Positions 30,637-56,592 of a DNA stretch of 60,474 nt are shown here, piece after piece. The notes under the pieces were generated by a model, which saw only the letters and a list, made by a program, of their open reading frames with translations, did no database searches and was not told where the DNA came from. Positions within the stretch are counted from its first letter, which is position 1; the number at the start of each line of letters is the position of its first letter. This DNA is from a virus. The translations under genes and the position numbers were made by a program. The stretch spans positions 1 to 60,474 of the IMG/VR virus record IMGVR_UViG_3300045988_152007; one strand, 5' to 3'.

Positions 30637-31039
30637 ATATCATAATTGGCTATAGACCCTTAACTATCTATGATTTAAATACGCCACAATTACCATGAAG
30701 CTTAGCGATACCAATTATTTTAAAAAACAAGACTCATTGAAAAGCCAAAATAAAAACGCGGAATTTAGCTTACTAAACCAGCTAAAAAGAAAAAACTTTT
30801 CAAAATATACTTTATTTTCTTTATTATACTTTTTCATCTATTATTTGATAAGTAAGTATTGTAGAGCCTTTGTAGGCAAAAGTTTGCTGAAAATGAGTCT
30901 TAATATATGAGGGGTGGAAAAGAATACCTTGTTGTCTTTGCCCTCGACAAGGTTTAACCGTATTATACGAAAGTAGGGTTATGTTAATGTAAGATTAGTT
31001 TAAACATCATCGCCACGGGAAGGCTCTTACTTGATGACG

Positions 31040-31124
31040 CATAGGAGCAAGGGATTCGAACCCTGGATGTGTAGCTACAATTAGTTTTGGAGACTAACCC
31101 AATCGACCACTCTGGCACTCCTAC
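31040..31124 (-). tRNA. unusual tRNA with anticodon CCA and a long (15-nt) variable arm
   Basis: Acceptor GTAGGAG/CTCCTAT, D-arm CCAG-AGTGGTCGA-TTGG, anticodon arm TTAGT-CTCCAAA-ACTAA, V-arm TTGTAGCTACACATC, T-loop TTCGAAT. Confidence 0.45.
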
Positions 31125-31139: not shown

Positions 31140-31748
31140 TTAAATATATTTCCAAAAATATCCTTTACAACTTTTTCTTGTACCTTTATATACATCAGCA
31201 ATATGGTGAGTATTTCCATTTTCTTTCTCAGCTTCTGTTATTGAAGGATAAATTTTTAATATTTTATTAGTTTTTATATCAACCATAGCAACTGGCTTAT
31301 ATAAAGTTTGAATTCTTCTAATATCTCGTTCTTGTGGAGTTACCCCATGATTATCTAATGCTACTTTAATAGTATGATCATCATAATGAGTAATTTCATG
31401 AATTTGTTTATAATTATTACCTTGATTATATAAAGAATATATTAAATCATAATCTGCATAACGTTTTCCATCTCCACCAATCGTAGCATTATATCCATAT
31501 TTAAAAGATCCTAATTTTTCAATCCAATATTTTTCTCTTTCTTCTGGATCATTAGTTTCTTCAATAAGTTTAATATGAAAATGTTCTATTCCATATTTTC
31601 TCATTGCTGCATACAAAGGACGTTTTTCATTTCTTTCTCGAAAAGCATCATTACAATGTTTTTTAAAACGATTTTCAATAGAAGATTCAGTTTTACCAAT
31701 ATAAATTTTTTCATTTATGTCATTTGTTATCTAATAAATGTATGCCAT
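31140..31748 (-). CDS. GIY-YIG homing endonuclease with an in-frame TAG
   Basis: MAYIYQITNDINEKIYIGKT N-terminus joined to ORF 31140..31616. Confidence 0.7.
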
Positions 31749-31838
31749 AATTAAATAGCTCCTTTTCATTATATTATAAGGATTAGTTTAAATAGTATCA
31801 CCACGAAAAGGTCCCTTATATGATACCGCGGAATCGCC

Positions 31839-32384: not shown

Positions 32385-33035
32385 TCATATATATTTCCAG
32401 ATATAACCATATGCTGTTTTACGTTTTCCATTTGCACATTCAGCAATATGACTTCTAACTCCAGAATTATAATTTAGACATTTTTTATTTTCAAAACACC
32501 ATTGTCCAGCTTCTGCTACAGAATCAAAAGTATTAATTAATATTCCATTTTTATTATATTGCCTAATACTTTTGGATTTTTCTTTTTTCATCTATTCATT
32601 ACTTTGATTAATTATCTAAATTTGGTGTTCTTTAGCTATCTATTGAACTAAATCACAACTACAATTAAATAATTTAGCTATTTCAATTGGACGTGGATTT
32701 ATTCTTAATGCTTCTAAAATTTTTTGATGGTCATATTTTATCTTGCCATCTCCTCCTTTAGTAGCATTATATCCATATTTAAAAGAGTTTAATTTCTCAA
32801 TCCAATAAATTTCTTTTTCGCTAGCTTCTTCAGCAGAACATTCTTCTAATTCCTTAATAGAAAAATTTTCTGGACCATATTTATTTATTGCGTTATATAA
32901 AGGACGTTTTTCATATTTAGATTTTTTATAATCTCTTAAATATTCTTTCCAACGTTCCTAAATATTATTTTTTAATGTTTTACCAACATAAATTTTTCCA
33001 TTAATATTATTTGTTATCTAATAAATATAAGCCAT
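32385..33035 (-). CDS. GIY-YIG homing endonuclease (216 aa) with 5 in-frame TAG
   Basis: 651 nt in frame from ATG 33033-33035 to the stop of ORF 32385..32591; N-terminus MAYIYQITNNINGKIYVGKT. Confidence 0.7.
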
Positions 33036-33161
33036 AATTATTATCTCCTCCATAATATTATGGAAATTTTGGTTGCAAAATTAATTTTCCGCGACCAAAA
33101 ATTTTTTAATCAATTAGCATTACCCAAGATACGCCCCGTGGAGGCTTGATTAATGTATCTC

Positions 33162-33977: not shown

Positions 33978-34456
33978 CTTAGCAATGCTCTTACAATTTC
34001 TTCAACACCTCCTCCGCCAAATAATCTTGAGCGAAATTAATACCAATTCGTTGTCCATTTTTAGGGGGGGTATAACGAATAGATTTAGTAGCTCCGCTAC
34101 ATTCTTCAACAGGAATTAAATAAACTTTTCCTTGGTGATAAGTAGCGAAAAAATCAATATCATTTTTTGTGTATGGAGTTTTTTTATAACCAGTCGTATT
34201 ATGACTTTGCCATCTCGTAGCAAAAGAAAAATGTGTAATTTCTCCTAATGTATATTCATCTTTAGCATGTTTAACTTGAACTTTATAAAGTTTACCTTTA
34301 TAATCCATAATTAAATCATACTTTTGACTATTTCCAAAAGGAAATGAAATATCACATCCCAGTTCATAAAGACCAGTAATACATTGTAATTCTGCTAAAT
34401 TACCGACTTCTTTAGAATTTCGTGTCATAAAATAGAAATTAAAAGAGTTTGCCGAG
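33978..34456 (-). mobile_element. 479-nt intervening sequence in a tRNA gene carrying a PD-(D/E)XK endonuclease ORF
   Basis: Same organisation and length as the insertion at 5097..5575. Confidence 0.5.
33991..34428 (-). CDS. PD-(D/E)XK-family putative homing endonuclease (I-Ssp6803I-like)
   Basis: ORF 33991..34464; probable start at the internal Met (MTRNSKEV) because 34457+ is tRNA exon sequence. Confidence 0.65.
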   Translation of the reverse strand: MTRNSKEVGNLAELQCITGLYELGCDISFPFGNSQKYDLIMDYKGKLYKVQVKHAKDEYTLGEITHFSFATRWQSHNTTGYKKTPYTKNDIDFFATYHQGKVYLIPVEECSGATKSIRYTPPKNGQRIGINFAQDYLAEEVLKKL

Positions 34457-35035
34457 TAAACCAAACGCTCTAACCAGCTGAGCTAATCCCGCATATAGTC
34501 TACTTAATTAAACTGCCAAGAAAAATTAAATAGACTTTTATAAAAATTCCTCATTGGGTATGGAGGCTATATCAAACTGGCTTTTACAGTAGGCCCAGTA
34601 AAGTGGATCTGCTTGATTTCCACAAGTATGAGTTTAATTAAAACAATTTTAACTCTAATTAAAACCTTGTTGCCTAGACTTTGACTATACATAGCGTTTG
34701 GACAAGGTAACTCAAACCTCGGGTTTCACTGTTACGTCGCTCCCCTAAGAACCAACGGAATGTTTTTCGATTACATTCAACGCCTTCTTTTGCTGTCCAA
34801 ACATGGCAGGTATCCTTTCCATCTTTTATCTTGTTCAACACAAGATGTGCTACCTTTATTGGTATCTCATACGCACGGTCTCCCGCAATATGATCTTGCC
34901 ATTACTCTTTAAGATTCTCTAATAGGATGAACTACGAGAATTTTGCTATCTTATATTACTTACGCGTTTTCATATAAGTGCCATTTAACGTCAGCGATGC
35001 TTTATGAAATTTCTCAAACTTGACCTGGTGATGGT

Positions 35036-35110
35036 GGAGGGATTTGAACCCTCGGTACCCTGCTTAAAAGGCAGGTGCCTTACCACTAGGCCACACCATC
35101 ATTCAATTTT
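35036..35110 (-). tRNA. tRNA-Lys(TTT)
   Basis: Acceptor GATGGTG/CACCATC, D-arm GCCTAGTGGTAAGGC, loop CTTTTAA, T-loop TTCAAAT, A73, CCA. Confidence 0.8.
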
Positions 35111-37011: not shown

Positions 37012-37159
37012 TGGTGGGGCCGGTTGGATTCGAACCAACGATTTGGCAATTTGGCCCAAAATGTTAGGTTTGAACTCACATCTTTCTTGCGCATAGACTA
37101 TTTTACCATTTAAACTAATCTTGGATAAGTTGCCGGCCTTACCGCTTGGCCACGACCCC
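37012..37159 (-). tRNA. tRNA with Gln-like D-arm split by a 73-nt anticodon-loop insertion (37055..37127); anticodon CCA under the U/G boundary rule, UCA or UAA under others
   Basis: Exon1 GGGGTCG-TG-GCC-AAGCGGTAA-GGC-C-GGCAA-CT; exon2 CCAAA-TTGCC-AAATC-GTTGG-TTCGAAT-CCAAC-CGGCCCC-A-CCA. Confidence 0.45.
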
Positions 37160-37190: not shown

Positions 37191-37219
37191 ATTATATTAT
37201 ATTTTTTTAATTTTTTCAA
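37191..37219 (-). promoter_or_regulatory. sigma70-type promoter TTGAAA-N17-TATAAT (minus strand)
   Basis: Motif family member. Confidence 0.6.
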
Positions 37220-37250: not shown

Positions 37251-37325
37251 TGGCTCCAAGGAAGGAATTCGAATCCTTATTTTCAGAATTAACTCTGATG
37301 AATTATCCAGTTATTCGACCACGGA
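37251..37325 (-). tRNA. tRNA-like gene with an aberrant 6/8-nt anticodon loop (GTTAAT); anticodon unclear (UAA or AAU)
   Basis: Acceptor TCCGTGG/CCTTGGA with one mismatch, D-arm GAAT-AACTGGATA-ATTC, T-arm AAGGA-TTCGAAT-TCCTT, G73, CCA. Confidence 0.35.
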
Positions 37326-37370
37326 AAAAAGTTTAAGTTGCTGTAAAAGCCTTTCTCTTTTTATATAAAT

Positions 37371-37399
37371 ATTATATAATATTTTTTATTAAAAATCAA
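37371..37399 (-). promoter_or_regulatory. sigma70-type promoter TTGATT-N17-TATAAT (minus strand)
   Basis: Motif family member. Confidence 0.55.
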
Positions 37400-37411
37400 A
37401 TAATTATTTTA

Positions 37412-37540
37412 TTCAAACAAGACTTATTTGATTTGGTTCCGCTGGGTTTAACCGCTTCCCTACCTCCGCCATATAATGGTGGGGAGGGCAGGATTCGAAC
37501 CTGCGTAGCATTTGCGACGGATTTACTGTCCATTTTTTGC
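37412..37540 (-). other. non-matching tRNA halves in permuted order: a 3' half with CCA (37466..37540) followed by an unrelated 5' half (37412..37451)
   Basis: GCAGG-TTCGAAT-CCTGC-CCTCCCC-A-CCA, then TTATAT, then GGCGGAG-GT-AGGG-AAGCGGTTAAA-CCC-A-GCGGA. Confidence 0.25.
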
Positions 37541-37575
37541 TGTTAAAGTCTTTATTTTCTTTATTTTGTATATAT

Positions 37576-37604
37576 ATTATATATTAATTTTTATTAAATA
37601 TCAA
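37576..37604 (-). promoter_or_regulatory. sigma70-type promoter TTGATA-N17-TATAAT (minus strand)
   Basis: Motif family member. Confidence 0.5.
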
Positions 37605-38281: not shown

Positions 38282-38932
38282 TTATAATGGTTCATTTCTA
38301 CCTGTGCCACTACATGTGCCAGTACAGCTTTTACATAAACCTGAACAACTTCCTCCACACAATCCAGTACAATCGTTAGCACAATGTCTTGTACAGCTAC
38401 CACTGCATCCACTACATCCTGTATAGCATCCACCTGAGCAAGAACCACTACATCCGCTACAGCTACCACTACAACTGCTTCGACATCCGCCTCTGCAAGT
38501 GTTTTGACAACCTCCTTGGCAAGTATTCTTACAACTACCTAAACAAGTTCCCTAACATTGTACTCCACAACTTTCGCTACAACTGGTAGAACATAATCCA
38601 GTGCAATAAGCTGAACATCCAGTATTCGAATCAGTTAATCCCATAGCTTGATAAGCTGTAATTTTTGCCTCTAATGTACTTAAATCATCATCTTTAATAA
38701 CATTTATATTTTCATTCTGATTTTCAATATTTATTGCCGCCATAGGTTCTACCAGTTTTGTTATGTGTTCTTTTGAAATAACTTTTCCATTATCAGGCTA
38801 AGTAGTATAATCATAAGAAGTCCCTCCATATGAACTTACACTACCGGTATATTTACGACGTAAACATTCAGCCTTTATTTTTTTCTTTAATTCATTGAAT
38901 CTATCAGAAGTTATTGTCGTTCCTATTTTCAT
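38282..38932 (-). CDS. Cys-rich repetitive protein (216 aa; about 30 Cys in the C-terminal 110 aa with GCSGSCSG-type repeats), one TAG; candidate radical-SAM substrate
   Basis: 651 nt in frame; AAGGAGA before ATG; contains ORF 38552..38743, which ends in TAG. Confidence 0.55.
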
Positions 38933-40244
38933 TTGTCATTGTCTCCTTTATTATATTATATTCATCCTAAGAGATAATTTTTAATGCTTTTTCCCTATCT
39001 CCATTAAATTTAAATCGTTTATTCGAGTTTATTTTTTTTAAAATAGAATTTAAATAATATAAAGAAGCTAGAACTGTAGCATAATGCATATCACAAATAT
39101 AAGTAACTCTTTTATTAACATTACCTGTTTCTTGATAATTATAAGCTGTACACCAAGAGCATCCTCCAGAAATTTCACAATCTAAACATTCTTGAGGAGA
39201 TTGACTAATAACTGTTATTTCAGATAAATCTTTTAATCTATTGATGGTTAAATTATCTTGGCCTATTCCCTAATAAATATCTCCAATATAATATTCTGGC
39301 TGATTACTTATGCTATCTTCCATATAACGTAAACATGGATAATATTTACCTTTCCAATTTAAGGCTAACATACGACCATTCCCGCCACACCAATTATCAT
39401 TAGATAAATTTTTACTTCCATCATTAATATAAAAAATAGATAAATAAACTTTATCCCACAAATCATTATTTAATAAATAATCAGCAATTTTTTTTAACTA
39501 ATAATATAATGTAGTGGCATGGTTAAGTTCCCAACCTTTTTCATACACACAATTTAGATTGATTTGACTATAACCATTGTTTATCATTTCTAAAACAGCG
39601 TCATATAAATAATCTATATTAAATGGAGAGATAGTCATTTTACTCCCAATCCATTTATTATAATTATGACTATAATGTAATGCGGCAGACAATGCTTTAT
39701 CATAACTACCACTACCATCAGGGAAAACTCTACAAGCGTCATGTAATTTTTTATTTCCATCAATAGAAATTGATAAACTTAAATTTTCATTATTTTTTTT
39801 AATATACTCTTGTACTTTTTGTTCAAAATATAAAATACCATTAGAACTAATTGAAATTTTATATTTAGTAGCCCAAGGATGCCGCAATTCAATCATTTTA
39901 TTAATAAAATAATCAGTAATCTAATCAATTAATTCAATTTCTAAAAATGGCTCTCCACCTATAAATTCTATTATTACTCCTGGTATTTTATAAGAATCAA
40001 TATAACCAATAATTTTATTATCTCTGGTTAATATCTAATCAATCATCTGTTTAGCTGTTTCAAAAGATAATTTATGTTTACCTTTATGCCCTTGATAACA
40101 ATAAGTACAATTTAAACAACAATCATCTGTAACCTAAAATGTTAATGTAAATACAGACTAAGAATTTAAACAATCTTCAGGATATAAACGACCTATAAAA
40201 TCAGAAAATTCTTCAGGAATGTGGCTTATTTTAGGAAATAACAT
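38904..40244 (-). CDS. radical SAM / SPASM-domain maturase-like protein (446 aa), in-frame TAGs
   Basis: CLNCTYCY, GGEPFL and a C-terminal Cys cluster (CGGNG...CLDCE..GGCSWC); 1341 nt in frame; joins ORFs 39498..39896 and 39270..39461. Confidence 0.6.
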
Positions 40245-40620: not shown

Positions 40621-40929
40621 TTATAAACCAAGCTTTTCAATTAAAGCTTTTAAATTTTCTTCTTCTTCTGGACTAATTTCTGTAGCCTTCTTTACAGACT
40701 GAATTGTTGCACCATCTTCAAAATTAAGTTCATTATTACCAAAATCCATAGAACCAAAATTTTCCACAGGAGTTTTCGGACAAGTTAAACTAATTGCAAT
40801 CTGAATATATTGTCCATTTTCTTTAGCTCGCACATAATACTTTTTATCATAAGATCCGAGGAAATCTTCACCAAATGCTTCTGCAATTTTTTCTACAACA
40901 GCATCTTTAGCAATACTACCTTTTGCCAT
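40621..40929 (-). CDS. hypothetical protein (102 aa)
   Basis: ORF track. Confidence 0.55.
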   Translation of the reverse strand: MAKGSIAKDAVVEKIAEAFGEDFLGSYDKKYYVRAKENGQYIQIAISLTCPKTPVENFGSMDFGNNELNFEDGATIQSVKKATEISPEEEENLKALIEKLGL

Positions 40930-42251
40930 TATTCATTCTCCCTATCAAATAAAATTTCATCATAACAAGCTTCACAATAGTAAGCATTGTTTTCTTCATC
41001 ATAAATTAAATCTTTTTTATCATAATACATATTACAATTATCACATATCTAATAATTGTCTCCGCAACTACGGCATACATAACCATCATCATCATCTAAT
41101 GATATTGCTTCAGGAATATAAATACGTCTACCGCACTCTCTACAGAAAGTAAAATCTTCTGTTTCTTCTGTACCATATTTAAGTTCGCAATCAATACAAA
41201 GCATTGTATCTGTTAAAACACAATCATTTTTACCACAAATACAGCATTTTACATCATGTCCTATATTAACTTTAGTAGTGGTACGAGTTCTTGGAAGAAT
41301 TAACTTATCTTGTGGAATACCTTCTTCATGCCAATAAGGTTCACTATAAGCAATACTAAACCAATAGTCATATACAGTAGAATGAAGAGGGTCATTGTAA
41401 TGCAAAGGATTTTTTGGGTCAACAATAACCTTAATATCTGGGGTCATTACGTATCCCGTAGGCAATAAACGAACTTCATTAGAAAAAATTTTATCATTTA
41501 TTGTAAATGTATTATATTTTTCATGACACCAATCAGTAAAACGGTATCCTTGCCCGAAAAATGTTTCATACAGTTCAAGAGCAAAATCTTGTAATCCTTT
41601 ACTTTCATAAGGATAATGCCGACCTGAAATAACCATAGTATCATCATCAGACACATGAAGAAGCATACGCCACTTCTTATCCACCCATGGCACATCATCT
41701 GGAAATCTAGGTAAAACTGCGTCATGTTCACTCTTAATATAACATATAATTGTACAATTATCTGCCATATAAGATAAATTACCAGCCCGATATTCTCCAT
41801 CAAGTGCATGGCATGACCGCCAGTTATGCGTATTTTCACTTAAACTAAGATAATCCAATGGATGAACTGACATACAAAAATATCCACTAATTTTTGTATT
41901 CTGAATGAGCATACTGGCTTTATCTTGTATTTCAGTAAGAATTTCCTTATCTTCTACAAAATATTTAAATGCTTTAATTATTTTCATTCCTTTTGGAATG
42001 ATAGTTCCATTATTCATTGGATAATCTTCGCTTAAAATATTATTATAAAAATCTTTTCTATTATTTTCAACAAAATCTCTTAATTCAAATAAGCCATAAC
42101 GCCAACGAATGTTGTCAATAAAACAATCTAATTCAGCTTTTTTATCATCTTCTGAAATAGACATTGTAATAGGTGCATGGCTTTGATAAATTAATTTATT
42201 ACCAGGAAGCCTGCTATAAAATTTGCATTTATTCTCTTCCCAATCATTCAT
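40929..42251 (-). CDS. paralog family B protein (HPLDY...W.SC core plus C-terminal CxxC zinc-ribbon repeats), 440 aa with one TAG
   Basis: ORF 41049..42251 ends in TAG and continues to TAA 40929-40931. Confidence 0.6.
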
Positions 42252-42331
42252 TAATTTATCAATATTTAAAAGGTTAATATCCAGCCCCTATGAATAGGCA
42301 ATAACCTTCTTTACTTGTTCTTTAATTTCAT

Positions 42332-43330
42332 TTAAATTACAACAGGGACTCGACATTTATTACATACTCTTTCTTTCATATTATTTGAATAAAATAAATT
42401 ATAACATCTTTCACATTGATGAATATTAGGATCAAGTGCTAAACATTCAGGACATACATGGACCTTTACTCCATCAATATCAAGAGGAAAATCTTCCCAC
42501 TCATAATATAACTGATTACAAAAACTACAATTAAGAAGTTTATCATCATCAAAATCATAAGGCATATGATATTTATTAGTTAATGTAATCCACTGAAGAT
42601 ATTCCTTGCTAGGAATAAATTTATATTTATCTGCATTTTCGATATCATCAAGCATTTTACATACTTTATTAATTGTATTATACAATGTTCTAATATGCAA
42701 ATCTTCATTTTGAGTATGTTCATGATGATAGCCAACTGATAAATTTACTCCGGCAATTTCCCATTCAGGCATAATAATACTAATATCTGTAAATGATCCA
42801 ATTGCTTGCTTAAAGCCGAAACTTTCAACATAATCCATGAACGTAAAATTTTCACACTCATAGAAGACACAATCTCTTTCACCAGCTCTATCAAGCTCAA
42901 TCATGTACTTAATATTTGGAGCTACTGGATGTTCTTCAACAAATATATGTGCCCCATAGCCACCCATTTCTTCATCTGTTGTAAAAAGAACATAAGGTCT
43001 ATACTTTTTGCGTAAAATCTGAATAATCGCAAAAACACCTGCTCTATCATCTGCTCCAAGACCTTCCTTGCCTTTATAAACAGCTCTTTTCTCATTATAA
43101 GTAAATTGACGAATTGGCTGTCTAAATACAGTATCTACATGTGCGATAAGCATAACAGGAATATTGCCTTCAGCATATACATAATCTTCTGTAATCTCTA
43201 CATTAGAATATTTATTAGATACAAAATCACCAAGAGCTTTCAAAAGACCTACTTCGCTAATCTTGAATAGTCCTTCCAAAAGCCCTCTACAATTTTCAGT
43301 AAACTCAGGAACTAAAACTTTTTTACCCAT
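42332..43330 (-). CDS. M20/M42-like metallopeptidase-domain protein with a C-terminal zinc ribbon
   Basis: ORF track 332 aa; motifs LIAHVDTV and GADDRAG; C-terminal CPEC...CERC...CNKC. Confidence 0.55.
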   Translation of the reverse strand: MGKKVLVPEFTENCRGLLEGLFKISEVGLLKALGDFVSNKYSNVEITEDYVYAEGNIPVMLIAHVDTVFRQPIRQFTYNEKRAVYKGKEGLGADDRAGVFAIIQILRKKYRPYVLFTTDEEMGGYGAHIFVEEHPVAPNIKYMIELDRAGERDCVFYECENFTFMDYVESFGFKQAIGSFTDISIIMPEWEIAGVNLSVGYHHEHTQNEDLHIRTLYNTINKVCKMLDDIENADKYKFIPSKEYLQWITLTNKYHMPYDFDDDKLLNCSFCNQLYYEWEDFPLDIDGVKVHVCPECLALDPNIHQCERCYNLFYSNNMKERVCNKCRVPVVI

Positions 43331-44846: not shown

Positions 44847-46490
44847 TTAAATCGCGATTGACCTATTGTAACTATAAAAACGCTCAGGATAACGACGAAT
44901 AGCATAAGTATAATCAGTAATTATAGTAGAATAAGGATCATTAGAAATTATCTTTTTAGCCTCTACATTTAAATCATCTTCTTCAATTAAAAGAGCCACC
45001 ATACCATAATAAGGACCGCCATCCAATCGAATTGTTTCAGCTCTAATATCAGTATCTCCAAGATACTTTAAATATTCTTTATTAGCAAGACATTCACTAC
45101 AAATATAATGTTCATCATAATCAATATTAATAGTTTGATTTTCAATATGTCCAACAAATACAGTAGTGAAATCTTCATCAAAATGAGCATCCTCACAGCA
45201 TAAGCATCTATGCAAATCATGATAACAATCTTCGCAAACCAATTCACCATCTACTTCAATTGCATCATTTGCATTAACTCGTTCGCCACAGCAATAACAA
45301 TAAGTGGGTGGATCACAGTCTTCACAAACCACCATTTCAGTATCATCAGACCAATAAGCATCCTCGCCGCAGCACATACAAGTCATTAAACCAGAATAAT
45401 TAATTGTAAATGTACGATATTTATTGTTTGGTGAATTAATTGAAAAAATTCCATAATTCTCTGTATTACCAAAATCATTATACATTTCATTTGTTGCAAA
45501 ATCCAACAGAAAATGATTATTCTTATCTTCTTTATCTTGCCAAGCTCCAATATAAGAGCAACTTTCCAAACTCTCTTGTGGCTTTTTTCTGTTATAACGC
45601 CATTCAGTTTTTTCTTCAACCAAATCAACAAGCCAATTTACAAGAGCTTTATCAAATGCAATATTATAATAAGGATAAGATTTTACAGAACAAATAGCAT
45701 TCGGATGGACAATAATTAATTCTCTCCAGCTTTTAGAAGTCCATTCAATAGAAGTGTTTGCTGGATAATAAGGTTTAGTAGTAATATATGCTATAACAAC
45801 TAATGGACTATTCATCATCTCAATAGTACCAGCACGATAACTTCCTGGTCCTTGAGTCCAGTTCATACAACTTTCCCATCCATTTGCATTATCGCTCATA
45901 GTCATATAATCCAAAGGATGAATAGATAGAGTAAATTTGATTTTAGATTTGCGTACTTCGGTAATACGTGAAATATGATTGCGGAAAATTTCAAAATCAG
46001 GTAAATCAAATTCTTTAGCCATTTTTTGAAGAACTTTCATTACCTTGGCTCCTTCTGGAACTTTAACTGCCTTACCATCTTTATTATGATAAATAAATCC
46101 TTTAGCAACTCTATTAGTAAAAAGTTGATAAGCTTGAATTAAATTATATATTGCATGTTTTGTTGCATAACTATCGTCAAAATAAATATTATTAAGCTCA
46201 AATAACTTACGAAGATTCTTAATAAAATTAATACCAGGATTAAAACTATAGAGATATTCACTAACTTCTCTTATTTTTTTATTATCTCCATCTTCAACCT
46301 GGATTTCCTTCTCCAGCATTAACTTTTCACCAAAAATATCAAACAGAGTTTGCTTACTCTTATTCCATTCTCGAAGGATATAATCAAGAGGGGCTTTAAG
46401 TTTAACGGGGGAATTAATGCCACCCCATTTTTCAATATATTCAGTAATATATTTCTTATCTTGGGCCGTTAATGCTTCATAAGGTGTCAT
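44847..46490 (-). CDS. paralog family B protein (547 aa)
   Basis: ORF track; SIHPLDYMTMSDNANGWESCMNW motif plus C-terminal CxxC repeats. Confidence 0.7.
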   Translation of the reverse strand: MTPYEALTAQDKKYITEYIEKWGGINSPVKLKAPLDYILREWNKSKQTLFDIFGEKLMLEKEIQVEDGDNKKIREVSEYLYSFNPGINFIKNLRKLFELNNIYFDDSYATKHAIYNLIQAYQLFTNRVAKGFIYHNKDGKAVKVPEGAKVMKVLQKMAKEFDLPDFEIFRNHISRITEVRKSKIKFTLSIHPLDYMTMSDNANGWESCMNWTQGPGSYRAGTIEMMNSPLVVIAYITTKPYYPANTSIEWTSKSWRELIIVHPNAICSVKSYPYYNIAFDKALVNWLVDLVEEKTEWRYNRKKPQESLESCSYIGAWQDKEDKNNHFLLDFATNEMYNDFGNTENYGIFSINSPNNKYRTFTINYSGLMTCMCCGEDAYWSDDTEMVVCEDCDPPTYCYCCGERVNANDAIEVDGELVCEDCYHDLHRCLCCEDAHFDEDFTTVFVGHIENQTINIDYDEHYICSECLANKEYLKYLGDTDIRAETIRLDGGPYYGMVALLIEEDDLNVEAKKIISNDPYSTIITDYTYAIRRYPERFYSYNRSIAI

Positions 46491-47120: not shown

Positions 47121-47709
47121 TTTATTTATAAATTGTTCCCTTTAACAAATCGGGTAATTCATTATTAAGAACTTCTTTCCACCCAATTATATTACCTTCA
47201 AAACCTTCAAGGTCTTTGAAATTGCCAGTTGGGCAAGTTTGACTAATCTTACTATCTACAACAAGCTCAATTAATTCATCACAAATAATACCGTGAATTA
47301 AATCCCAGTTTTTTGTATGGCGGTCTTGCTTTTCATCAGCTTTAACGACCTTAATCTCTGAACCATCTTCACAAATAAAAATCCATTTTGAACCAATCTT
47401 ACCGAAATACCTTCCAAGAGCACAAGCAGTATAGCCATCATCAGTAGCTAATGTGCCGTTCTCCTAAATGGTTAAATAATTATGAATTAAATCCCATTGA
47501 GGACTATCAGTAGATGTAATATCAGTCCACCATTCAAAGGGTTTATTAGTATGGTCGATTCCGCAATTACAATATTCTGTAGGACCGTATTCGATTTCTG
47601 ACCTGCTTCCGCCATCAGCACTATAACTTTTTATGTTAAAAGCATTTACTGGCATCATCATTAAAGCAACCATAGCGATTACAAGAATGACATTTAAGAA
47701 TTTTCGCAT
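47121..47709 (-). CDS. secreted hypothetical protein (signal peptide), one TAG
   Basis: ORF 47464..47709 (MRKFLNVILVIAMVALMMMPVNA) ends in TAG and continues to TAA ~47121. Confidence 0.5.
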
Positions 47710-47802
47710 ATTAATTCTCCTTCAATATAAAATAAATAACTAGTAAATAATACTATATTTCATATGAAAAGTCAAATTTAATAGCTAAAAAGAATTGACC
47801 AC

Positions 47803-48582
47803 TCAAAAGCGGTCAATATTATTTACAGCATCATCCATTTTATCATGCCAGAGGAAAATATCTTCCAAAGGGTCGATACAATTAAAAAAGATAATATTAT
47901 GCTTATTAATAAATCTATCACAATGATAATGACCAAAGAGCCATACATCATATGTAATCATATTCTTAATTTCTTCAAGCCATTCTTCCATAGAAGTATC
48001 TACGGTAGATTGATCTACTATTGAAAGGAATTTATCAACTGGCCTAAGAGAATAAGGGCAGGTGTGTGATAGTACAAGATCAAAATGCTTATTAGTTTGT
48101 CGAATAAGCATTTCAGCATCAACTTTTTCTTTATTATTTAATTGTTCATCTTCCCACCAAAGCAAATTGTTTTTAAGACGATAATATTTATCAACAGAAT
48201 AAGCACCACCAATAACTAATGTACGATATTCTCTATCTTCGGTTTTAAGATAATAAATCCCGTAATTATCAAAATATCTAATCAGAGGGTGAGTCGGCTC
48301 ATACCATACATTAGCCTGAACATTGCTATCCCAAACACGCTCCATACCTTCAACGTTTTCAGGACGTACTTCATGATTGCCATGCACGCAATAAATAAAA
48401 TATCCAAACTGGCTTGCATATTCTTTCTTCATATTATCTCTGAATGCACTACCAGTATTAAAACCGCAGTCTCCAAGGATAATAATTGCGTAGTCTTTTG
48501 GATTTAAAATTCTAAACATTCTTGCATTAAGCCATGTGAAATCACCATGACAATCGCCTCTAATCAGATAGTCCTTGAACAT
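47803..48582 (-). CDS. calcineurin-like metallophosphoesterase
   Basis: ORF track 259 aa; motifs GDCHGD, GDCG, GNHE. Confidence 0.7.
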   Translation of the reverse strand: MFKDYLIRGDCHGDFTWLNARMFRILNPKDYAIIILGDCGFNTGSAFRDNMKKEYASQFGYFIYCVHGNHEVRPENVEGMERVWDSNVQANVWYEPTHPLIRYFDNYGIYYLKTEDREYRTLVIGGAYSVDKYYRLKNNLLWWEDEQLNNKEKVDAEMLIRQTNKHFDLVLSHTCPYSLRPVDKFLSIVDQSTVDTSMEEWLEEIKNMITYDVWLFGHYHCDRFINKHNIIFFNCIDPLEDIFLWHDKMDDAVNNIDRF

Positions 48583-48595
48583 TGAAGTTCCCTCC

Positions 48596-48787
48596 TTACG
48601 TATTTTCTTCTTTAGCCAGCTCTTCCTTTAATTTTTCTACTTTTTCTATAACTGCACTAAGCACAACAGCTTGAGCCCCAAATCTGGTAAAATGTTCAGT
48701 CAACCATTTACCAAGATCATCAAAATTGTTTTCAATTTCTTCAATATCTCGACTATCAATTTCAATAGTCATATTATCTTCAGACAT
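48596..48787 (-). CDS. small acidic hypothetical protein (63 aa)
   Basis: ORF track. Confidence 0.45.
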   Translation of the reverse strand: MSEDNMTIEIDSRDIEEIENNFDDLGKWLTEHFTRFGAQAVVLSAVIEKVEKLKEELAKEENT

Positions 48788-49595
48788 TTAACATTTCCTT
48801 TACAATTCTTTTTTTCATAATAAGATAAACAATCTTATTCATAAAATCTTCAAGTTCTTCATTACCTTCATCCTTGGTCTTAGAACAATAATCATCAGCT
48901 ACTCTTGTAATATTATTAATAGCAGTATTTGCTACAATTCGTGCAGTTTCAAGATCATAGTGATAATTTTTTACAGCAAGAAGATAATCACCCCTTGGTG
49001 CCTGAAGACAATCAGCATACTTAACCTCATCAATATAACGTCCAAGATACTGTTCGATACGAAGCAAATGCATAAGCTGCTTACTATCATAACCATATGT
49101 ATCAATCAGATGAGTTTTAGTAGGATATCTATGCTCCATTGCATGATATTTTTCCATAGCAATACCCTTCATTGTCTTAACTGCCTTGTAAGGATTATAA
49201 CGTGCAATAGCTTCACGCTCATTAAGCAGTGCCTGCCACTCATTCCAATACACGCTTGATGCCATTTTATAAGGTGTGAAGATACATTCAAGATATGCCA
49301 TATTCTGTTTCTTCAAACAATCAATGAACAAACGAATATCTTTAAAATCAATGTGTTCATCATTAGGAAGAATTTTGGTATAAGACACTGGCTTTTTATT
49401 CAATACAATATCTTCAAATGAAGGAAGAACAATAAGCCGGGTATCTACATCAGACAATTGAGTATCAAGACCATAGTTCTGGCTACCATAAGCCATTAAG
49501 CTAACCCAATTTTCTCCTCTGACATTAACTGCTTCTAAATGAGTTTCTACTTTATCCATAACCCATTTATCTAAATGGTAATTCATAATTATCAA
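48780..49595 (-). CDS. nucleotidyltransferase-fold protein (Pol-beta superfamily)
   Basis: ORF track 271 aa; GS...DVD motif (AYGSQNYGLDTQLSDVDTRLIV). Confidence 0.55.
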   Translation of the reverse strand: MIIMNYHLDKWVMDKVETHLEAVNVRGENWVSLMAYGSQNYGLDTQLSDVDTRLIVLPSFEDIVLNKKPVSYTKILPNDEHIDFKDIRLFIDCLKKQNMAYLECIFTPYKMASSVYWNEWQALLNEREAIARYNPYKAVKTMKGIAMEKYHAMEHRYPTKTHLIDTYGYDSKQLMHLLRIEQYLGRYIDEVKYADCLQAPRGDYLLAVKNYHYDLETARIVANTAINNITRVADDYCSKTKDEGNEELEDFMNKIVYLIMKKRIVKEMLNV

Positions 49596-49599
49596 CTCC

Positions 49600-49845
49600 T
49601 TAAATCATTGAAAACTGTTCATCTTCAAAAATTCCTTCATATACAAATCCAATAGTATCAGAATAAACATTATCAATGGCATCGTATTCTCGCACGTGTG
49701 AATAGCCCCAATAATATCTACTCTCTCCTGCGGCTTTGCGAATAATTTGATTGGCATGTTCAGCATCAAGGGCAGCAACTAGACTAAATCCATGCCACCC
49801 TACCTGTGGTTCAATCAGATACACCTTACATTTATATTCAGTCAT
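49600..49845 (-). CDS. hypothetical protein (81 aa)
   Basis: ORF track. Confidence 0.5.
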   Translation of the reverse strand: MTEYKCKVYLIEPQVGWHGFSLVAALDAEHANQIIRKAAGESRYYWGYSHVREYDAIDNVYSDTIGFVYEGIFEDEQFSMI

Positions 49846-49847
49846 AC

Positions 49848-50078
49848 TTATTCCTCTACAAAATGAATAATTAAATCATAACCTTCTTCCGTTTCAACCA
49901 TTTCATATGGATGATGAAGATCAATTTTATATCCATCTCGCTTTTGAATTTCAACACCTTGAGAACCAATAGCATCAGGGAAAATACGAATCCTATTAGA
50001 AGTATAATTCCAAGAGGAAATAAGAATCATTCCGGCAGCTATAATCAATAGGATTGTTATAACACACTTTTTAATCAT
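49848..50078 (-). CDS. small membrane protein (76 aa)
   Basis: ORF track; hydrophobic N-terminal segment. Confidence 0.5.
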   Translation of the reverse strand: MIKKCVITILLIIAAGMILISSWNYTSNRIRIFPDAIGSQGVEIQKRDGYKIDLHHPYEMVETEEGYDLIIHFVEE

Positions 50079-50316
50079 TTGCAGTCATATCCTTCCATGT
50101 ACAAGTATTAAGCCAGTATCGTGTCTGATTACTACCATCTTTAGAACTCGCCGCTAGCCCCTGACCGATGAGGCCACGCATAACACCTGAAACCCCTTGT
50201 GATGTAATATCAAAATCATACTTACGCTTTGCGAACGCTGAAATTTGCTTTGCAGTAAGAGTGCCGCTTTCTTTAAGAATTTTAATTACCATTTCTTTTT
50301 TTCCCATTACATCCAA
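50071..50316 (-). CDS. hypothetical protein (81 aa)
   Basis: ORF track. Confidence 0.5.
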   Translation of the reverse strand: MDVMGKKEMVIKILKESGTLTAKQISAFAKRKYDFDITSQGVSGVMRGLIGQGLAASSKDGSNQTRYWLNTCTWKDMTAND

Positions 50317-50762
50317 TCCTCGCTTACCCTTTCATTAACCGGTCTGACTACATTAAGTTCAATAGGTTCCCAATTGTAATCAGCCCAGTGAAGCCAATCA
50401 GTTGCTGTCCATTTATTATGTTCTTCAACTAACTTATCTATTTTCTTCATTTGGCAGTTACAATCAATGACAATACGTTCATATTTCTTATATTGTTTCT
50501 TGGCGTCTTTGTATTCAGGATTTTCCTTACCCACCTGAAGGATGGGAAGATATTTATTCATGTCCTGAATTGCTTCATGGCGTTTAGTTTCGTATCGAGC
50601 TTTTTCAGCTTTGAGAGTTTCAAAATGATTATGAATGCTACTTTGCATTAGAGTTGAATGAAACAACTCTTCAAGATAATCATTCAACTTATCTTCAGTA
50701 AGATAACCAAGCTTCTGCTCTTCATAATAAGGACCATATGTTAGTCTATAAATGCGTTCCAT
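50307..50762 (-). CDS. hypothetical protein (151 aa)
   Basis: ORF track. Confidence 0.55.
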   Translation of the reverse strand: MERIYRLTYGPYYEEQKLGYLTEDKLNDYLEELFHSTLMQSSIHNHFETLKAEKARYETKRHEAIQDMNKYLPILQVGKENPEYKDAKKQYKKYERIVIDCNCQMKKIDKLVEEHNKWTATDWLHWADYNWEPIELNVVRPVNERVSEDWM

Positions 50763-50841
50763 ATCTCTCCCATCCTTTCTATATATATTATATCAAATTT
50801 TTTATAAATTTTCGAGTATTCAATTTTGGCAAGAATTTAAA

Positions 50842-52506
50842 CTAAACATAATCATCAGGATAAGTCGCCTTTAGCCGCATCTTGGCATCAGCAATTCTTT
50901 CAAGGGACAGAAATGGCTCCCATACCTTTTTATCTGCCTTGTCAACATCAATATACTGAAAATCGCCCCACAAGTCTGGCTCCTTCGGTGCATCACCAAA
51001 ATCATAATCTTCATAACAATCATCACAGACATCAATGGGATTTCCAACATCACGACGATGCTTACCATTAGGAGTTTTTACTTCAAACATATAGGGAAGA
51101 GCCTGCTTCTTGAAATCATAATCAAGCCATTTAGTTTCTCCGCAACAGCTACAAGTCTGAGTGCGGCCATCTGCACACCAGCTACAATAAGTTGCACCGT
51201 CCCCTTCACAGAACCAAGCATCTTCACTATCAATCCAAGAGCCACAATCATCACACTGGACTTTGCCTTCACAGGTTGCACATACGACTTTATCACATTC
51301 TACAAATGCATCTACATTTCCACTCGGATCAGCTTCATAGCCTTTACCGCAGCACATACATTCAGCTACACCAGAATAGTAAACTTCTACTTCTTTTACT
51401 TCTGGATTGATATAAGCATAATGATTATCATAATAATCATTATACATAGCTCCAGTTCTCATGCGGATATAAACCTGACCAAAATCAGTATCATTGCTCT
51501 GATTCTGCCAAACCTCATACATCTTATCGTCGTAATGCCAGCCCATATTCTGTTCAGCTAACTGCTTAATTTTATTCAGCACATAATCACGCAGATAAAT
51601 ATTGTTATAAGGATACTGCTTAATTTCAGTGATAATATCCTTATTAACAATATAAAGACACCGCCAACGCTTATTACTCCAAGTTCTTTTGTCACGGTCA
51701 ATAGGACAATAAGGATGCTCGGATTCAACATATGCTTCAAGGATGACAGGAGAATTCATCATTTCAACAGTGCCAAGACGATAATCACCGCCCTGATACC
51801 AGTTCATACAACTCTCCCAATCACAAGCATTATCACTCATAGTAAGATAATCAAGCGGATGAATAGAGAGTACAATATCAGCATTAATCATACGATCATT
51901 CAAAACACGCGAATGAAGAATACGAAACTGCTCAAATGCTTCTTTATCCAGCTCAAACCAATCGACAATTTTAGCCATCATTCGCATCAGCTTCATATCA
52001 CTCTTCAACTCAAGCGGCTTCGAAGTATCTGCATGCGGACCACGGCGAATAACAACAGATTTGCGACCCCAATCAAACATATATACATTTTTATTGGCTA
52101 CGAGAGATTCACTATCAAGGCAATGGTCAATCATGCTACAACAATTAACACGTTCATCTTTATCAAGAGTGGTATCCATCCAAGAATAATAAATATTAGT
52201 AATTTGCTCGTAAGAATCAATGAATTTTTTGACGTTTGCTAATTCAGGATTATTATAAATTTCTTCATACATTTCACCGAATTTATCCATCAAATCATCT
52301 CCAGATGCCTGATAGGAAATATGGTCTTCGACCATCAAATTATTACCAAGCAACTCATACAGGTCAGGCTTTTCAGCAGCCCAAAACCGCAGAAGATGAT
52401 TAATTTCATCTACAGTGCAGTAATTATCAGAATGAAGGTACTCTTTAATATAATCATGCAGCAGATTCTTTTCTTCTTCTGGAATGAGTGTCCTCAAATC
52501 TGTCAT
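50842..52506 (-). CDS. paralog family B protein (554 aa)
   Basis: ORF track; SIHPLDYLTMSDNACDWESCMNW motif plus C-terminal CxxC repeats. Confidence 0.7.
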   Translation of the reverse strand: MTDLRTLIPEEEKNLLHDYIKEYLHSDNYCTVDEINHLLRFWAAEKPDLYELLGNNLMVEDHISYQASGDDLMDKFGEMYEEIYNNPELANVKKFIDSYEQITNIYYSWMDTTLDKDERVNCCSMIDHCLDSESLVANKNVYMFDWGRKSVVIRRGPHADTSKPLELKSDMKLMRMMAKIVDWFELDKEAFEQFRILHSRVLNDRMINADIVLSIHPLDYLTMSDNACDWESCMNWYQGGDYRLGTVEMMNSPVILEAYVESEHPYCPIDRDKRTWSNKRWRCLYIVNKDIITEIKQYPYNNIYLRDYVLNKIKQLAEQNMGWHYDDKMYEVWQNQSNDTDFGQVYIRMRTGAMYNDYYDNHYAYINPEVKEVEVYYSGVAECMCCGKGYEADPSGNVDAFVECDKVVCATCEGKVQCDDCGSWIDSEDAWFCEGDGATYCSWCADGRTQTCSCCGETKWLDYDFKKQALPYMFEVKTPNGKHRRDVGNPIDVCDDCYEDYDFGDAPKEPDLWGDFQYIDVDKADKKVWEPFLSLERIADAKMRLKATYPDDYV

Positions 52507-52571
52507 TTTAATTCACCTTTTCCCTTTAATTTATATATATATTTTATAATATTTTTTTATAAAAATAAAAT

Positions 52572-52593
52572 AAGGAGCCTTTAACAAGGCTCC
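52572..52593 (-). terminator. hairpin AGGAGCC-TTTAACAA-GGCTCCT
   Basis: Seen directly; downstream end of gene ..53504. Confidence 0.45.
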
Positions 52594-53504: not shown

Positions 53505-53556
53505 AGTTAAAAAGTAAAATTATCTTCTACACTTTTTAACTATGGAGATAAATTAA

Positions 53557-55173: not shown

Positions 55174-55394
55174 CCTCGACTATACATCTCCCATACCATA
55201 TCTTCTTCGGCAGGTGTGATATCCTCAATCCCGCACTCTTCACACATAATATTAAAATTTTCCTCAACATACCATCGAGGATTTTCTTGCATCTTACGTA
55301 CCAGAGTATTAATACATCCAGTACGAGTGTTTACCATTCCAGTACCCTCTGCTTCATTCATGAACAGAAAATAACTATCATCAAAACCAAACAT
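55170..55394 (-). CDS. hypothetical protein (74 aa)
   Basis: ORF track. Confidence 0.5.
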   Translation of the reverse strand: MFGFDDSYFLFMNEAEGTGMVNTRTGCINTLVRKMQENPRWYVEENFNIMCEECGIEDITPAEEDMVWEMYSRG

Positions 55395-55453: not shown

Positions 55454-56047
55454 TTACAAACAAGAAATAGAACCTTCCGGGGTAGTCAATTGTGCAGTTG
55501 CAGTATAATTATATTTAACAAGTTCAACAATACCATCCTCATTAACTACACACTTATAAATATGTTTAAGTTCAGCATCATTTTCAACCGTTTGCTTAAT
55601 AAGCTGGGCACTACTAATTGCCGCCTTACAAATTGCCTCTTGGCTTTCTTCTTTGAGTGTCTGACAATCTGCTTTCATAAGGTCACAAAATTCAAGACCC
55701 TTAAGCAGTTCTGCTTCCTGCATTGCTTTAGTTCTTTTATTTTCCCACCATTGGATAAATTTACGGTATTCCTTATAAGAACTAAAATACACATAAAATT
55801 TACTTTCACCAACAATATTTTTTTTACCAATTTTATAAGAAATGCTAGTATCACTAATACACCATTTATCAGGCTTAATAGCAGAGTATTTCATTACTTC
55901 ATCAAAGGTAAGCTCAACAGTTTTATCATGCCATCCAATGGCTTCCTTTTTAAAACGCTGATAATCTTCCCAATTCTTAAAATAGCTAAATACTATAAAA
56001 CAGATAATAGCAAATACAATAAAAATACCTAAAATAATTAAAAACAT
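55454..56047 (-). CDS. membrane-anchored hypothetical protein (197 aa)
   Basis: ORF track; N-terminal transmembrane helix. Confidence 0.6.
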   Translation of the reverse strand: MFLIILGIFIVFAIICFIVFSYFKNWEDYQRFKKEAIGWHDKTVELTFDEVMKYSAIKPDKWCISDTSISYKIGKKNIVGESKFYVYFSSYKEYRKFIQWWENKRTKAMQEAELLKGLEFCDLMKADCQTLKEESQEAICKAAISSAQLIKQTVENDAELKHIYKCVVNEDGIVELVKYNYTATAQLTTPEGSISCL

Positions 56048-56592
56048 TACTTATTATCCTCCTTCTTCTGTCGCAGATCATGGTCTTCGCCATCATAAAT
56101 TTCACGATATTTAGTAAACAGAGAGCCATCATTATAATAATATCTAATACTATTCCAACCATTATAATGATCAGTCAAATCAGGCCAATCTACAATACGT
56201 GCCTGCCGTTCAAGCTCCTGCTGCGGCACAACTCTATGTCTCTTGGAGTTCCATTCCTTTGAATTTTCTACACTAGCGATAATAACCATAAGCTGGTAGT
56301 TATCAAAATGAGGAAAACGGCTTCTGATTTCTTCTCTCTGTCCAAGAGTCAAACAATTAGTATCAATGATAATATCTGCCTTATCCATCTCTGCACAATG
56401 TACAATCTGATATAATGTCTGCCAAACTTCGAACTTATGACAGCGGTTGCATTCATCACCATTGAAGACAGCATACAATTCATCAGGGTTTACATACCGG
56501 ATGTGATTCATCTTTGCGAAGGATTTCGCGAATGTAGTCTTTCCATTTGCACTCAAGCCGCACATCATATATAGAGTCGCCATCAACTTCAT
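56047..56592 (-). CDS. P-loop NTPase, polynucleotide-kinase/zeta-toxin-like
   Basis: ORF track 181 aa; Walker A GLSANGKTT. Confidence 0.6.
   Translation of the reverse strand: MKLMATLYMMCGLSANGKTTFAKSFAKMNHIRYVNPDELYAVFNGDECNRCHKFEVWQTLYQIVHCAEMDKADIIIDTNCLTLGQREEIRSRFPHFDNYQLMVIIASVENSKEWNSKRHRVVPQQELERQARIVDWPDLTDHYNGWNSIRYYYNDGSLFTKYREIYDGEDHDLRQKKEDNK

Follow-up and report, generated by a model that had tools for sequence, protein, structure and literature searches.

Introns in bacterial tRNA genes are, to our knowledge, established only as self-splicing group I elements, which occur in the genes for tRNA-Leu(UAA), tRNA-fMet, tRNA-Ile and tRNA-Arg and, in Patescibacteria, in those for tRNA-Asn and tRNA-Asp. 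These elements reside in the anticodon loop, are mobile and are often associated with homing endonucleases; they measure at least 200 nt and possess a P3-P9 catalytic core and a terminal G. Archaeal and eukaryal tRNA introns are removed by protein enzymes and require a ligase, and in eukaryotic tRNA-Ile(UAU) genes the intron is required for modification of the anticodon. A further group was described in the Lak megaphages by Devoto et al. (2019, Nat Microbiol; PMC6784885), who termed these tRNA introns "enigmatic", put forward no mechanism, and noted that the one interrupting tRNA-Thr(TGT) might "itself encode a tRNA". Beyond that paper, we found no account of tRNA-shaped introns in the literature, nor any later paper. 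Here we describe an interrupted tRNA gene in IMG/VR virus record IMGVR_UViG_3300045988_152007 (positions 1 to 60,474; this whole 60,474-nt stretch is hereafter the window). On the minus strand (37159 to 37012), its two tRNA halves are 73 nt apart, and a mimic of a tRNA, 73 nt long, interrupts the anticodon loop at the step from nt 36 to nt 37. The gene is composed as follows:

37012..37159, minus strand: whole interrupted tRNA gene (pre-tRNA), 148 nt (35 + 73 + 40), from RF00005 and ARAGORN -i
37125..37159, minus strand: 5' exon, 35 nt, from direct reading; its spliced form is called as tRNA-Ile(tat)
37052..37124, minus strand: intron, 73 nt, tRNA-like and with G-CCA at its end, from RF00005 on the insert alone
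37012..37051, minus strand: 3' exon, 40 nt, from direct reading, the Rfam alignment and the spliced-product call

The original prediction had placed a 73-nt insertion within the anticodon loop of a tRNA at this locus, and both programs bear this out. The Rfam tRNA model (RF00005; gathering score 29 bits) covers 37015..37159 over model positions 1-71 at 46.6 bits with all four arms present and a 76-nt unaligned gap falling in the anticodon loop, while ARAGORN, which misses the gene by default, reports a 75-nt tRNA with a 73-nt intron once introns are allowed (-i). The predicted coordinates were also correct, with the amendment that the gene lies on the minus strand, and each of the listed elements was found in the sequence, namely the acceptor GGGGUCG/CGGCCCC, D arm GCCAAGCGGUAAGGC, anticodon stem GGCAA/UUGCC, T arm, A73 and CCA. 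Specifically, the 5' exon comprises the acceptor strand GGGGUCG, U8 G9, the D arm GCCA-AGCGGUAA-GGC, C26, the anticodon stem strand GGCAA and CUUAU, the last representing loop nt 32-36 and holding the anticodon UAU; the 3' exon comprises A37 A38, UUGCC, a variable region AAAUC, the T arm GUUGG-UUCGAAU-CCAAC, the acceptor strand CGGCCCC, A73 and CCA. The description of this body as Gln-like applies to the D arm, and not to the A73 discriminator or the G1-C72 pair.

The split gene was recovered at 15 loci (10 different sequences), which come from IMG/VR, from metagenomes and from a contig of one Clostridium-binned metagenome-assembled genome, and is thus not a product of chance. These homologues were reached via the neighbouring radical SAM protein and an 18-mer of the insert, most matches to which were due to chance and were filtered by BLAST. 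Exact-pattern searches of IMG/VR with the window's 5' half and 3' half gave no match, the outer tRNA body of the window (type A) being absent from that collection in such searches, and GenBank phage records contained no match to either the region or the pre-tRNA. Two outer bodies were distinguished among the homologues: type A, in the window and contigs L130, L133 and L170, and type B, GCUCUCG UAGCUCAAUUGGUCAGAGC ... CGGGAGC. The two differ by 7 double-sided changes, every one of which preserves pairing, and the outer cloverleaf has therefore been under selection and kept foldable.

Within the intron, the following elements of a tRNA-like fold were delineated:

37118..37124, minus strand: inner acceptor 5' strand CCAAGAU, pairing with 37056-37062
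37100..37115, minus strand: inner D arm GUUU-AAAUGGUA-AAAU, from the Rfam alignment, with an invariant stem
37080..37099, minus strand: inner central region AGUCUAUGCGCAAGAAAGAU, nearly invariant, replacing the anticodon arm and variable loop
37063..37079, minus strand: inner T arm GUGAG-UUCAAAC-CUAAC, with one G.A mismatch
37052..37062, minus strand: inner acceptor 3' strand AUUUUGG, discriminator G and CCA, from the Rfam alignment and covariation

By itself the insert scores 31.8 bits against RF00005, above the gathering score, over model positions 1-71 and with a shortened anticodon arm. The Rfam alignment resolves a 7-bp acceptor stacked on the 5-bp T stem, an elbow formed by the T and D loops, and a single-stranded leader (CUUAU) and trailer (AAUUGCC); equivalents of A14, G18G19 and A21 are present in the D arm, before which stand U8 and A9. 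The central region, on the other hand, forms a stem of no more than 3 bp with the loop AUGCGCA and is without a canonical 7-nt U33 loop, Rfam aligning 11 nt to the 13 of the model, such that it is 2-3 nt too short. Given this absence of a functional anticodon arm, the inner element is a mimic rather than a decoding tRNA. The imperfect stem CCAAGAU/AUUUUGG that had been noticed within the insert is real: 3 of its 7 pairs covary among 8 distinct homologues (C-G/U-A, G-C/A-U/G.U and U-A/C-G), with every combination able to pair. What had been overlooked is that it serves as the acceptor within a complete tRNA-like fold.

A self-splicing or self-cleaving insert, either minimal group I-like or a pair of small nucleolytic ribozymes, would accord with the only established kind of bacterial tRNA intron, and like such introns the insert occupies an anticodon loop. 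We nevertheless consider a ribozyme very improbable. The insert was rightly judged too short for a group I intron at 73 nt, and the inserts of all four families described below, at 58-81 nt, fall far under any group I core and have tRNA features alone in common. Neither a P3-P9 core nor a terminal G is present, the intron ending in A, and an Rfam search of the gene and the insert gave no match at E <= 10 to ribozyme or intron families, including Intron_gpI. Still less credence can be given to an archaeal/eukaryal-type intron cut by a splicing endonuclease at a motif of the bulge-helix-bulge (BHB) kind, defined as 3-nt bulges 4 bp apart, notwithstanding that the location in the anticodon loop and the length are typical of archaeal introns and that protein enzymes and a ligase would be shared. 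Modelling of the junctions, where a BHB-like motif had been suggested, yielded predicted and consensus folds that lack a BHB and set the two junctions face to face in a single internal loop, flanked by the outer anticodon stem and by the insert's terminal helix. Moreover, the interruption lies at 36/37 (34/35 and 35/36 in sister genes) and not at 37/38, the intron is itself folded as a tRNA, and the setting is that of a bacterial phage, with a ROOL RNA, encoded CCA ends and a ligase nearest to those of Bacillus phages. No splicing endonuclease of the EndA/TSEN type was found among 30 window proteins scanned against Pfam or PHROGs.

As the junction can be slid along the sequence, the anticodons CCA, UCA and UAA had each been put forward. 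None of these is the best reading. An opal suppressor with UCA, reading UGA, would be of no use to a phage in which TAG and not TGA is recoded, and all three alternatives, including CCA (Trp) and UAA (Leu), are ruled out by intronless homologues and by a sister tRNA-Lys gene, which give UAU (Ile). The favoured junction is CUUAU|...CCA|AA, leaving the loop CUUAUAA (C32 U33 U34 A35 U36 A37 A38). Support for this boundary comes from a second gene in which the presence of an intron varies:

35026..35100, minus strand: intronless tRNA-Lys(UUU), loop CUUUUAA, orthologous by position to the intron-bearing Lys gene of relatives

On contig L001 (14471-14603), and also on L002 and L004, this gene reads CCUGC-CUUU|58-nt insert|UAA-GCAGG, the insert (GUGGGAU...AUUCCGC-A-CCA) having no anticodon arm at all; the window and L001 copies occupy orthologous places and have their downstream flank in common. 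Since the intronless loop CUUUUAA is reproduced solely by a junction running from inner position +1 to the inner CCA, both junctions are fixed. Intronless tRNA-Ile(UAU) genes on phage contigs L211-L216 have in common with type B genes the D arm, C26, GGCGA-CUUAUAA-UCGCC and the variable loop AGAUG. Together with the Lys control, these homologues identify the gene as that of tRNA-Ile(UAU) with an intron at 36/37, a notable likeness to the intron-bearing eukaryotic genes for a tRNA with this anticodon. Deletion of the mimic in silico from position +1 to 76 leaves what reads as a canonical 75-nt tRNA-Ile(UAU), and both this predicted product and the proposed architecture are well supported by these comparisons. 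The predicted mature tRNA reads across the junction as ...GGCAACUUAUAAUUGCC..., with GGCCGGCAACTTATAATTGCCAAATCG as the predicted spliced junction sequence (GAGCCGGCGACTTATAATCGCCAGATG in type B), and may be told from the unspliced exon-intron junctions CAACTTATCCAAGATTAG and TTTTGGGCCAAATTGCC.

To locate comparable genes we scanned 2.7 Mb for an acceptor and T-arm module nested in an outer anticodon stem, with the 5' boundary fixed at inner +1 and a tail of 0-3 nt allowed. This identified 30 nested cases (many redundant), every one with a tail of 3 nt, and none in a reversed-sequence control. The cases represent four unrelated insert families in gut phage contigs, whose ends fall at +1 and 76 in the numbering of the mimic inside:

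Ile(UAU), the family of the window: insert 73 nt, tail CCA, loop position 36/37, 31.8 bits for the insert alone
Lys(UUU): insert 58 nt, tail CCA, loop position 35/36, 30.4 bits alone
Ile(UAU), L073/L074 11707-11864: insert 81 nt, tail CUA, loop position 34/35, 43.0 bits alone
Thr(UGU), L215 3640-3790: insert 65 nt, tail CAA, loop position 35/36, 37.1 bits alone

Like the window's insert, the other three keep the acceptor, D and T arms and have an anticodon arm that is shortened, deleted or non-canonical. Across families the position of the insert in the outer loop differs, whereas its boundaries relative to the inner element are constant, and what is left of the loop invariably amounts to the canonical 7 nt, U33 being present and nt 37 a purine. 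In-silico spliced products of all four families were called as canonical tRNAs (that of the window as tRNA-Ile(tat) by ARAGORN). With introns allowed, ARAGORN reported the window gene as Trp(CCA), its L004 copy as SeC(UCA), the Ile(UAU) gene with the 81-nt insert as Ile(AAT) and the Lys(UUU) gene as Met(CAT), and the Thr(UGU) gene was found by the nested-module scanner only. A Lys-type insert gene was also seen in L115. Separately, ARAGORN -i "introns" of 71 and 125-297 nt (Pro, Cys, Stop, Phe and Pyl; L001-L004 and L073/L074) were rejected as adjacent tRNAs misjoined.

These comparisons also bear on whether the gene is spliced at all. It might represent a tRNA gene inactivated by a tRNA-derived insertion, or a carrier of the inner RNA, the halves, or both. 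In favour of such an unspliced gene, the inner element is 90-99% identical across the 15 loci even where the neighbouring protein is 66% identical, and ends in its own CCA, as would a stable RNA; and 345 nt upstream there is another tRNA-like RNA, in permuted form, so that the phage may make non-decoding mimics. On the other side, two outer bodies hold perfect cloverleaves through compensatory changes, the leftover loops are canonical in all four families, the predicted products match intronless tRNAs of relatives, and AUA-rich genes of the phage need a tRNA-Ile(UAU). An unspliced gene is on this balance improbable, and with its insert conserved and its outer stems intact and compensating, the locus is not obviously a pseudogene.

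Evidence of exchange was apparent from the separate affinities of exons and intron. The window exons are closest to L170 (1 difference in 75 nt), while its intron is closest to L151 (1/73, versus 7/73 to the L170 intron; Fisher p = 0.03), and the surrounding 4.5 kb are 97.8% identical to the type B phage L001. The intron thus appears to behave as a unit exchanged between tRNA genes, for which homing is a plausible driver, given the genes found among the tRNA genes of the window:

1703-2149, 5108-5551, 6192-6839, 31140-31769, 32385-33053 and 33991-34494: six free-standing homing-endonuclease-like genes

By sequence motif, three of these are of the GIY-YIG type and one is HNH. The remaining two are PD-(D/E)XK: 33991-34494 matches PF11645 (90.5 bits), and visual comparison with it placed 5108-5551 in the same class. 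PF11645 presumably includes I-Ssp6803I, of the cyanobacterial tRNA-fMet intron. Homing endonucleases may drive a cassette-like exchange of both tRNA bodies and introns.

The closest comparison is with the Lak introns. As in the Lak phages, the introns occur in anticodon loops of tRNAs from TAG-recoded gut phages, are almost invariant and are polymorphic for presence and absence, and on reanalysis of the published Table S6, all four Lak introns end in an acceptor/T-arm module (PMC6784885). They differ in length (79-114 nt), in an extra 5' module of 26-31 nt (a hairpin and an A-rich linker), and in a 3' junction 1-2 nt past the discriminator, compared with 3 nt here. This 5' module is absent from the window intron, which consists of the mimic and 3-nt tail only, so that both junctions coincide with the ends of the mimic. 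The interrupted tRNAs (Ile-UAU and Lys-UUU here) also differ, as does the phage lineage, with 540-kb Prevotella phages on the one hand and a ~188-kb, Bacillota-like phage on the other. The present class is a minimal variant.

A possible route of excision is suggested by what the mimic retains. Its acceptor/T stack, elbow and 3' tail are features read by tRNA end-processing enzymes, which argues for an RNase P cut at its 5' end; mimics would in effect keep what RNase P and RNase Z read and shed what both ignore, the anticodon arm. RNase P is predicted to cut directly 5' of the inner acceptor strand CCAAGAU (U36|C1), leaving a 3'-OH on exon 1, and an RNase Z-type endonuclease directly after the inner CCA, a boundary given by the Lys orthologue and the intronless Ile homologues. 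RNase Z cuts leave a 5'-phosphate on the downstream RNA, as would be expected here on exon 2. The exon halves would be held together by the outer cloverleaf, and a phage ATP-dependent RNA ligase, for which 3'-OH/5'-phosphate ends represent the classic substrate, would seal the nick in the anticodon loop. The freed mimic might be a by-product or have a function of its own, and the mature tRNA would provide AUA decoding for the A+T-rich, TAG-recoded genes of the phage. Consistent with this scheme, RNase Z cuts CCA-containing precursors mainly right after the CCA, including the T. maritima and archaeal enzymes, with the B. subtilis enzyme slower; it needs a matured 5' end, and archaeal enzymes can act when the D, T or anticodon arm is missing (PMC7479834). 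Cuts of the RNase P and RNase Z type, with sealing by a phage ligase, form together with the architecture the whole explanation that we tentatively favour, at slightly less than an even chance. The broader proposal, that phages of this kind possess a protein-dependent tRNA splicing system, in which the mimic recruits RNase P and RNase Z or a ruler nuclease, a ligase joins the exons and homing endonucleases render the unit mobile, is more doubtful again, and we offer it as a conjecture.

A candidate ligase was identified just outside the window. Positions 47164-60474 are 100.000% identical to L219, a 188,411-bp human-gut contig that encodes, ~7 kb past the window end, a 456-aa ligase-like protein (L219:457-1827). 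This matches RNA_ligase (PF09414) at 31.2 bits (cut-off 27) with the motif EKVHGTS (KxHG type), and its N-terminus matches the PHA02142 OB fold (PF21189) at 26 bits, just below the cut-off of 27; annotated RNA ligases from Bacillus phages share 43% identity with it, and no relative in the PDB was found by sequence. We predict it to be an Rnl2-superfamily ligase with Rnl5-type architecture, a type shown to seal 3'-OH/5'-PO4 nicks (PMC4408790, PMC7261155). Homologues occur on all four intron-carrying IMG/VR contigs in a pattern-based search, in which divergent copies would be missed. No RNA ligase was found inside the window in Pfam or PHROG scans of 30 proteins. Those scans did reveal a set of genes with possible roles in RNA end healing or repair:

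56047..56592, minus strand: P-loop kinase AAA_33 (Pfam, 47.9 bits), PHROG polynucleotide kinase-like (phrog_505), candidate end-healing enzyme
47803..48582, minus strand: calcineurin-like metallophosphoesterase (Pfam, 46 bits; phrog_1649), candidate end-healing enzyme
48780..49586, minus strand: RlaP-family nucleotidyltransferase, "RNA repair pathway DNA polymerase beta family" (PF10127, 26.6 bits, cut-off 23; phrog_388)

These genes lend some weight to an explanation with the same architecture and product in which a dedicated endonuclease, of phage or host, recognises the L-shaped mimic and cuts on both sides, leaving 2',3'-cyclic phosphate and 5'-OH ends that kinase and phosphoesterase would heal before the ligase seals, as with T4 Pnkp and Rnl1. 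The kinase-like protein, metallophosphoesterase and RlaP nucleotidyltransferase, present in addition to the ligase, would suit such a pathway; a tail fixed at 3 nt despite the variants CCA, CUA and CAA fits a ruler better than an enzyme that reads CCA; and Lak introns require a 5' cut beyond that of RNase P. However, no candidate for this endonuclease was found in the 60 kb by the Pfam and PHROG scans of window proteins, the heal-and-seal set is equally explained as a defence against host anticodon nucleases, and the features retained by the mimic are exactly those that RNase P and RNase Z read. A dedicated endonuclease is accordingly possible, if unlikely, and is the chief competitor of the favoured pathway.

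Several observations weigh against cleavage by RNase P and RNase Z followed by ligation, or against parts of this reading. The kinase and phosphoesterase are not needed by RNase P and RNase Z products, and so hint at a 5'-OH/2',3'-cyclic phosphate pathway. Because the Lak introns carry the extra 5' module, RNase P alone cannot set their 5' splice site. RNase Z of the B. subtilis type is strongly inhibited by CCA, and the CUA and CAA tails, each found in one of the four families, would not be expected to direct RNase Z to cut after position 76. With respect to the ligase, Rnl5-type enzymes have been characterised on nicked duplexes and not on anticodon-loop nicks, and the family is widespread in phages (364 GenBank records), such that its co-occurrence with the intron is not specific. 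In the insert, a fold of two hairpins accounts for 2 double-sided changes versus 3 for the cloverleaf in 8 sequences, and its nearest-neighbour energy is slightly lower; covariation could not separate the two, and the two-hairpin fold, or a switch between both, is compatible with the data. Splicing, both cleavage sites and ligation are all predicted from sequence. The product raises a further point. Identity elements for the E. coli isoleucyl-tRNA synthetase are A73, C4-G69, U12-A23 and C29-G41; type B genes (L001-L004, L081, L151 and others) and the L073 gene carry all four of this set, while the type A body of the window carries only A73 and C29-G41.

Partial parallels for the proposed steps exist elsewhere. 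In MALAT1/mascRNA and the t-elements of plant mitochondria, a longer transcript contains a tRNA mimic that does not decode and at whose ends RNase P and RNase Z cut; the product that functions is the RNA flanking the mimic. There the mimic terminates transcripts or parts them from one another, and the flanks are not rejoined, whereas here they are tRNA halves that would need ligation. For the joining step, T4 Pnkp with Rnl1, and the Rnl5 ligases DraRnl and NgrRnl, provide ATP-dependent 3'-OH/5'-phosphate joining in broken RNA (PMC4408790, PMC7261155). T4 Rnl1 acts in the tRNA anticodon loop; the counterparts in the present phage are a ligase with OB and adenylyltransferase domains, placed in its family at the Pfam level only, a kinase and a phosphoesterase. 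Unlike the proposed pathway, these systems mend damage by host nucleases, and a role for them in scheduled intron removal is undescribed.

Codon usage offers a rationale for a tRNA-Ile(UAU). All long open reading frames (ORFs) of the window lie on the minus strand; with TAG read as a sense codon, the ORF total of this strand grows from 34 kb to 54 kb, whereas reading TGA in that way brings almost no gain, and a CUA suppressor (2466-2540) is among the 13-15 tRNA genes. The AUA share of Ile codons is 0.30 in TAG-containing and 0.11 in TAG-free genes (p = 6e-4), and gene by gene, across minus-strand ORFs, AUA use correlates with in-frame TAG use (Spearman 0.59; 0.52 after G+C is removed), with AUA almost avoided in the TAG-free, apparently early genes at 42-60 kb. 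As AUA use tracks TAG use, the tRNA would serve the same genes as the amber suppressor. This suggests that phage tRNAs other than the suppressor gate the expression of recoded genes, to which, speculatively, ligase-dependent splicing would add timing control.

Should the proposed pathway hold, it would provide a testable mechanism for phage tRNA introns unexplained since 2019 and the first protein-dependent route of tRNA splicing in the bacterial world, assembled from universal enzymes. A phage RNA ligase, hitherto seen only as a repair enzyme, would be joining exons, giving a physiological substrate to phage and bacterial RNA ligases that are widespread and functionally largely uncharted, and maturation of tRNA-Ile(UAU), tRNA-Lys(UUU) and tRNA-Thr(UGU) would depend on phage gene expression. 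For annotation, standard tRNA finders miss such genes and intron options misplace the junction; in stop-codon-recoded phages, misplaced junction calls could pass for suppressor tRNAs. A self-excising, tRNA-shaped cassette would in addition be of interest to RNA engineering.

Other features of the window that accompany its tRNA genes include the following:

37191..37219, minus strand: promoter-like site TTGAAA-17-TATAAT, ~30 nt upstream of the split tRNA, with 11 of 12 consensus matches
3430-4023, minus strand: ROOL RNA (323 bits), in the first tRNA cluster, beside the CUA suppressor
1417-1529, minus strand: RAGATH-33 RNA (139 bits), in the same cluster and likewise beside the CUA suppressor

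Promoter-like sites in the A+T-rich stretch around the split tRNA are no more numerous than expected from shuffled sequence. Approximately 345 nt upstream of the split tRNA (37410-37545, minus strand), we identified a circularly permuted tRNA-like element with the order T arm GCAGG-UUCGAAU-CCUGC, 3' acceptor, A-CCA, a 6-nt linker UUAUAU, 5' acceptor, U8A9 and D arm, completed by UCCGU/GCGGA, the counterpart of an anticodon stem, and by AAGACUU/AAGUCUU, a closing helix. The element is provided with a separate promoter-like site close to consensus (37604..37576), matches Rfam weakly (tmRNA_permuted 15.9 bits; tmRNA 13.4 bits), and is conserved in relatives with a compensatory T-stem change from C-G to U-A and a change from G.U to A-U in the anticodon-stem counterpart; a tRNA mimic of the Y-RNA/YrlA type and a tRNA-like RNA in two pieces are both conceivable identities. 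Between this element and the split tRNA (37252-37335, minus strand) lies a full cloverleaf ending in G-CCA (UCCGUGG ... AAGGA-UUCGAAU-UCCUU CCUUGGA G CCA), missed by ARAGORN and Rfam, with a promoter-like site at 37399..37371 and an anticodon loop GUUAAU of 6 nt, which would widen to 8 nt on opening of the last pair of the stem. ARAGORN assigns Trp(CCA) to 31039-31124 (minus strand), a class-II-like tRNA of 86 nt whose variable arm is long and which falls below the Rfam gathering score, and in L002 (~19715-19787) a candidate tRNA-like gene has the loop AUUUAAU, whose anticodon UUA would read the ochre codon.

Among protein-coding genes, three paralogues (40929-42356, 44847-46490 and 50788-52506; 475, 547 and 572 aa) share the motif S(I/V)HPLDY(L/M)..S(D/E)N..W.SC and a C-terminal CxxC cluster; none has a Pfam match, and the 547-aa protein, the only one scanned against PHROGs, has none there. 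Finally, a very A+T-rich island (7057-16450; 19-24% G+C) with many in-frame TAG and AUA codons encodes several radical SAM/SPASM-like CxxxCxxC proteins alongside glycosyltransferase-like proteins, and elsewhere a Cys/Ser/Gly-rich 216-aa protein (38282-38932) adjoins another radical SAM gene (38904-40244). A peptide-modification module may be encoded here.

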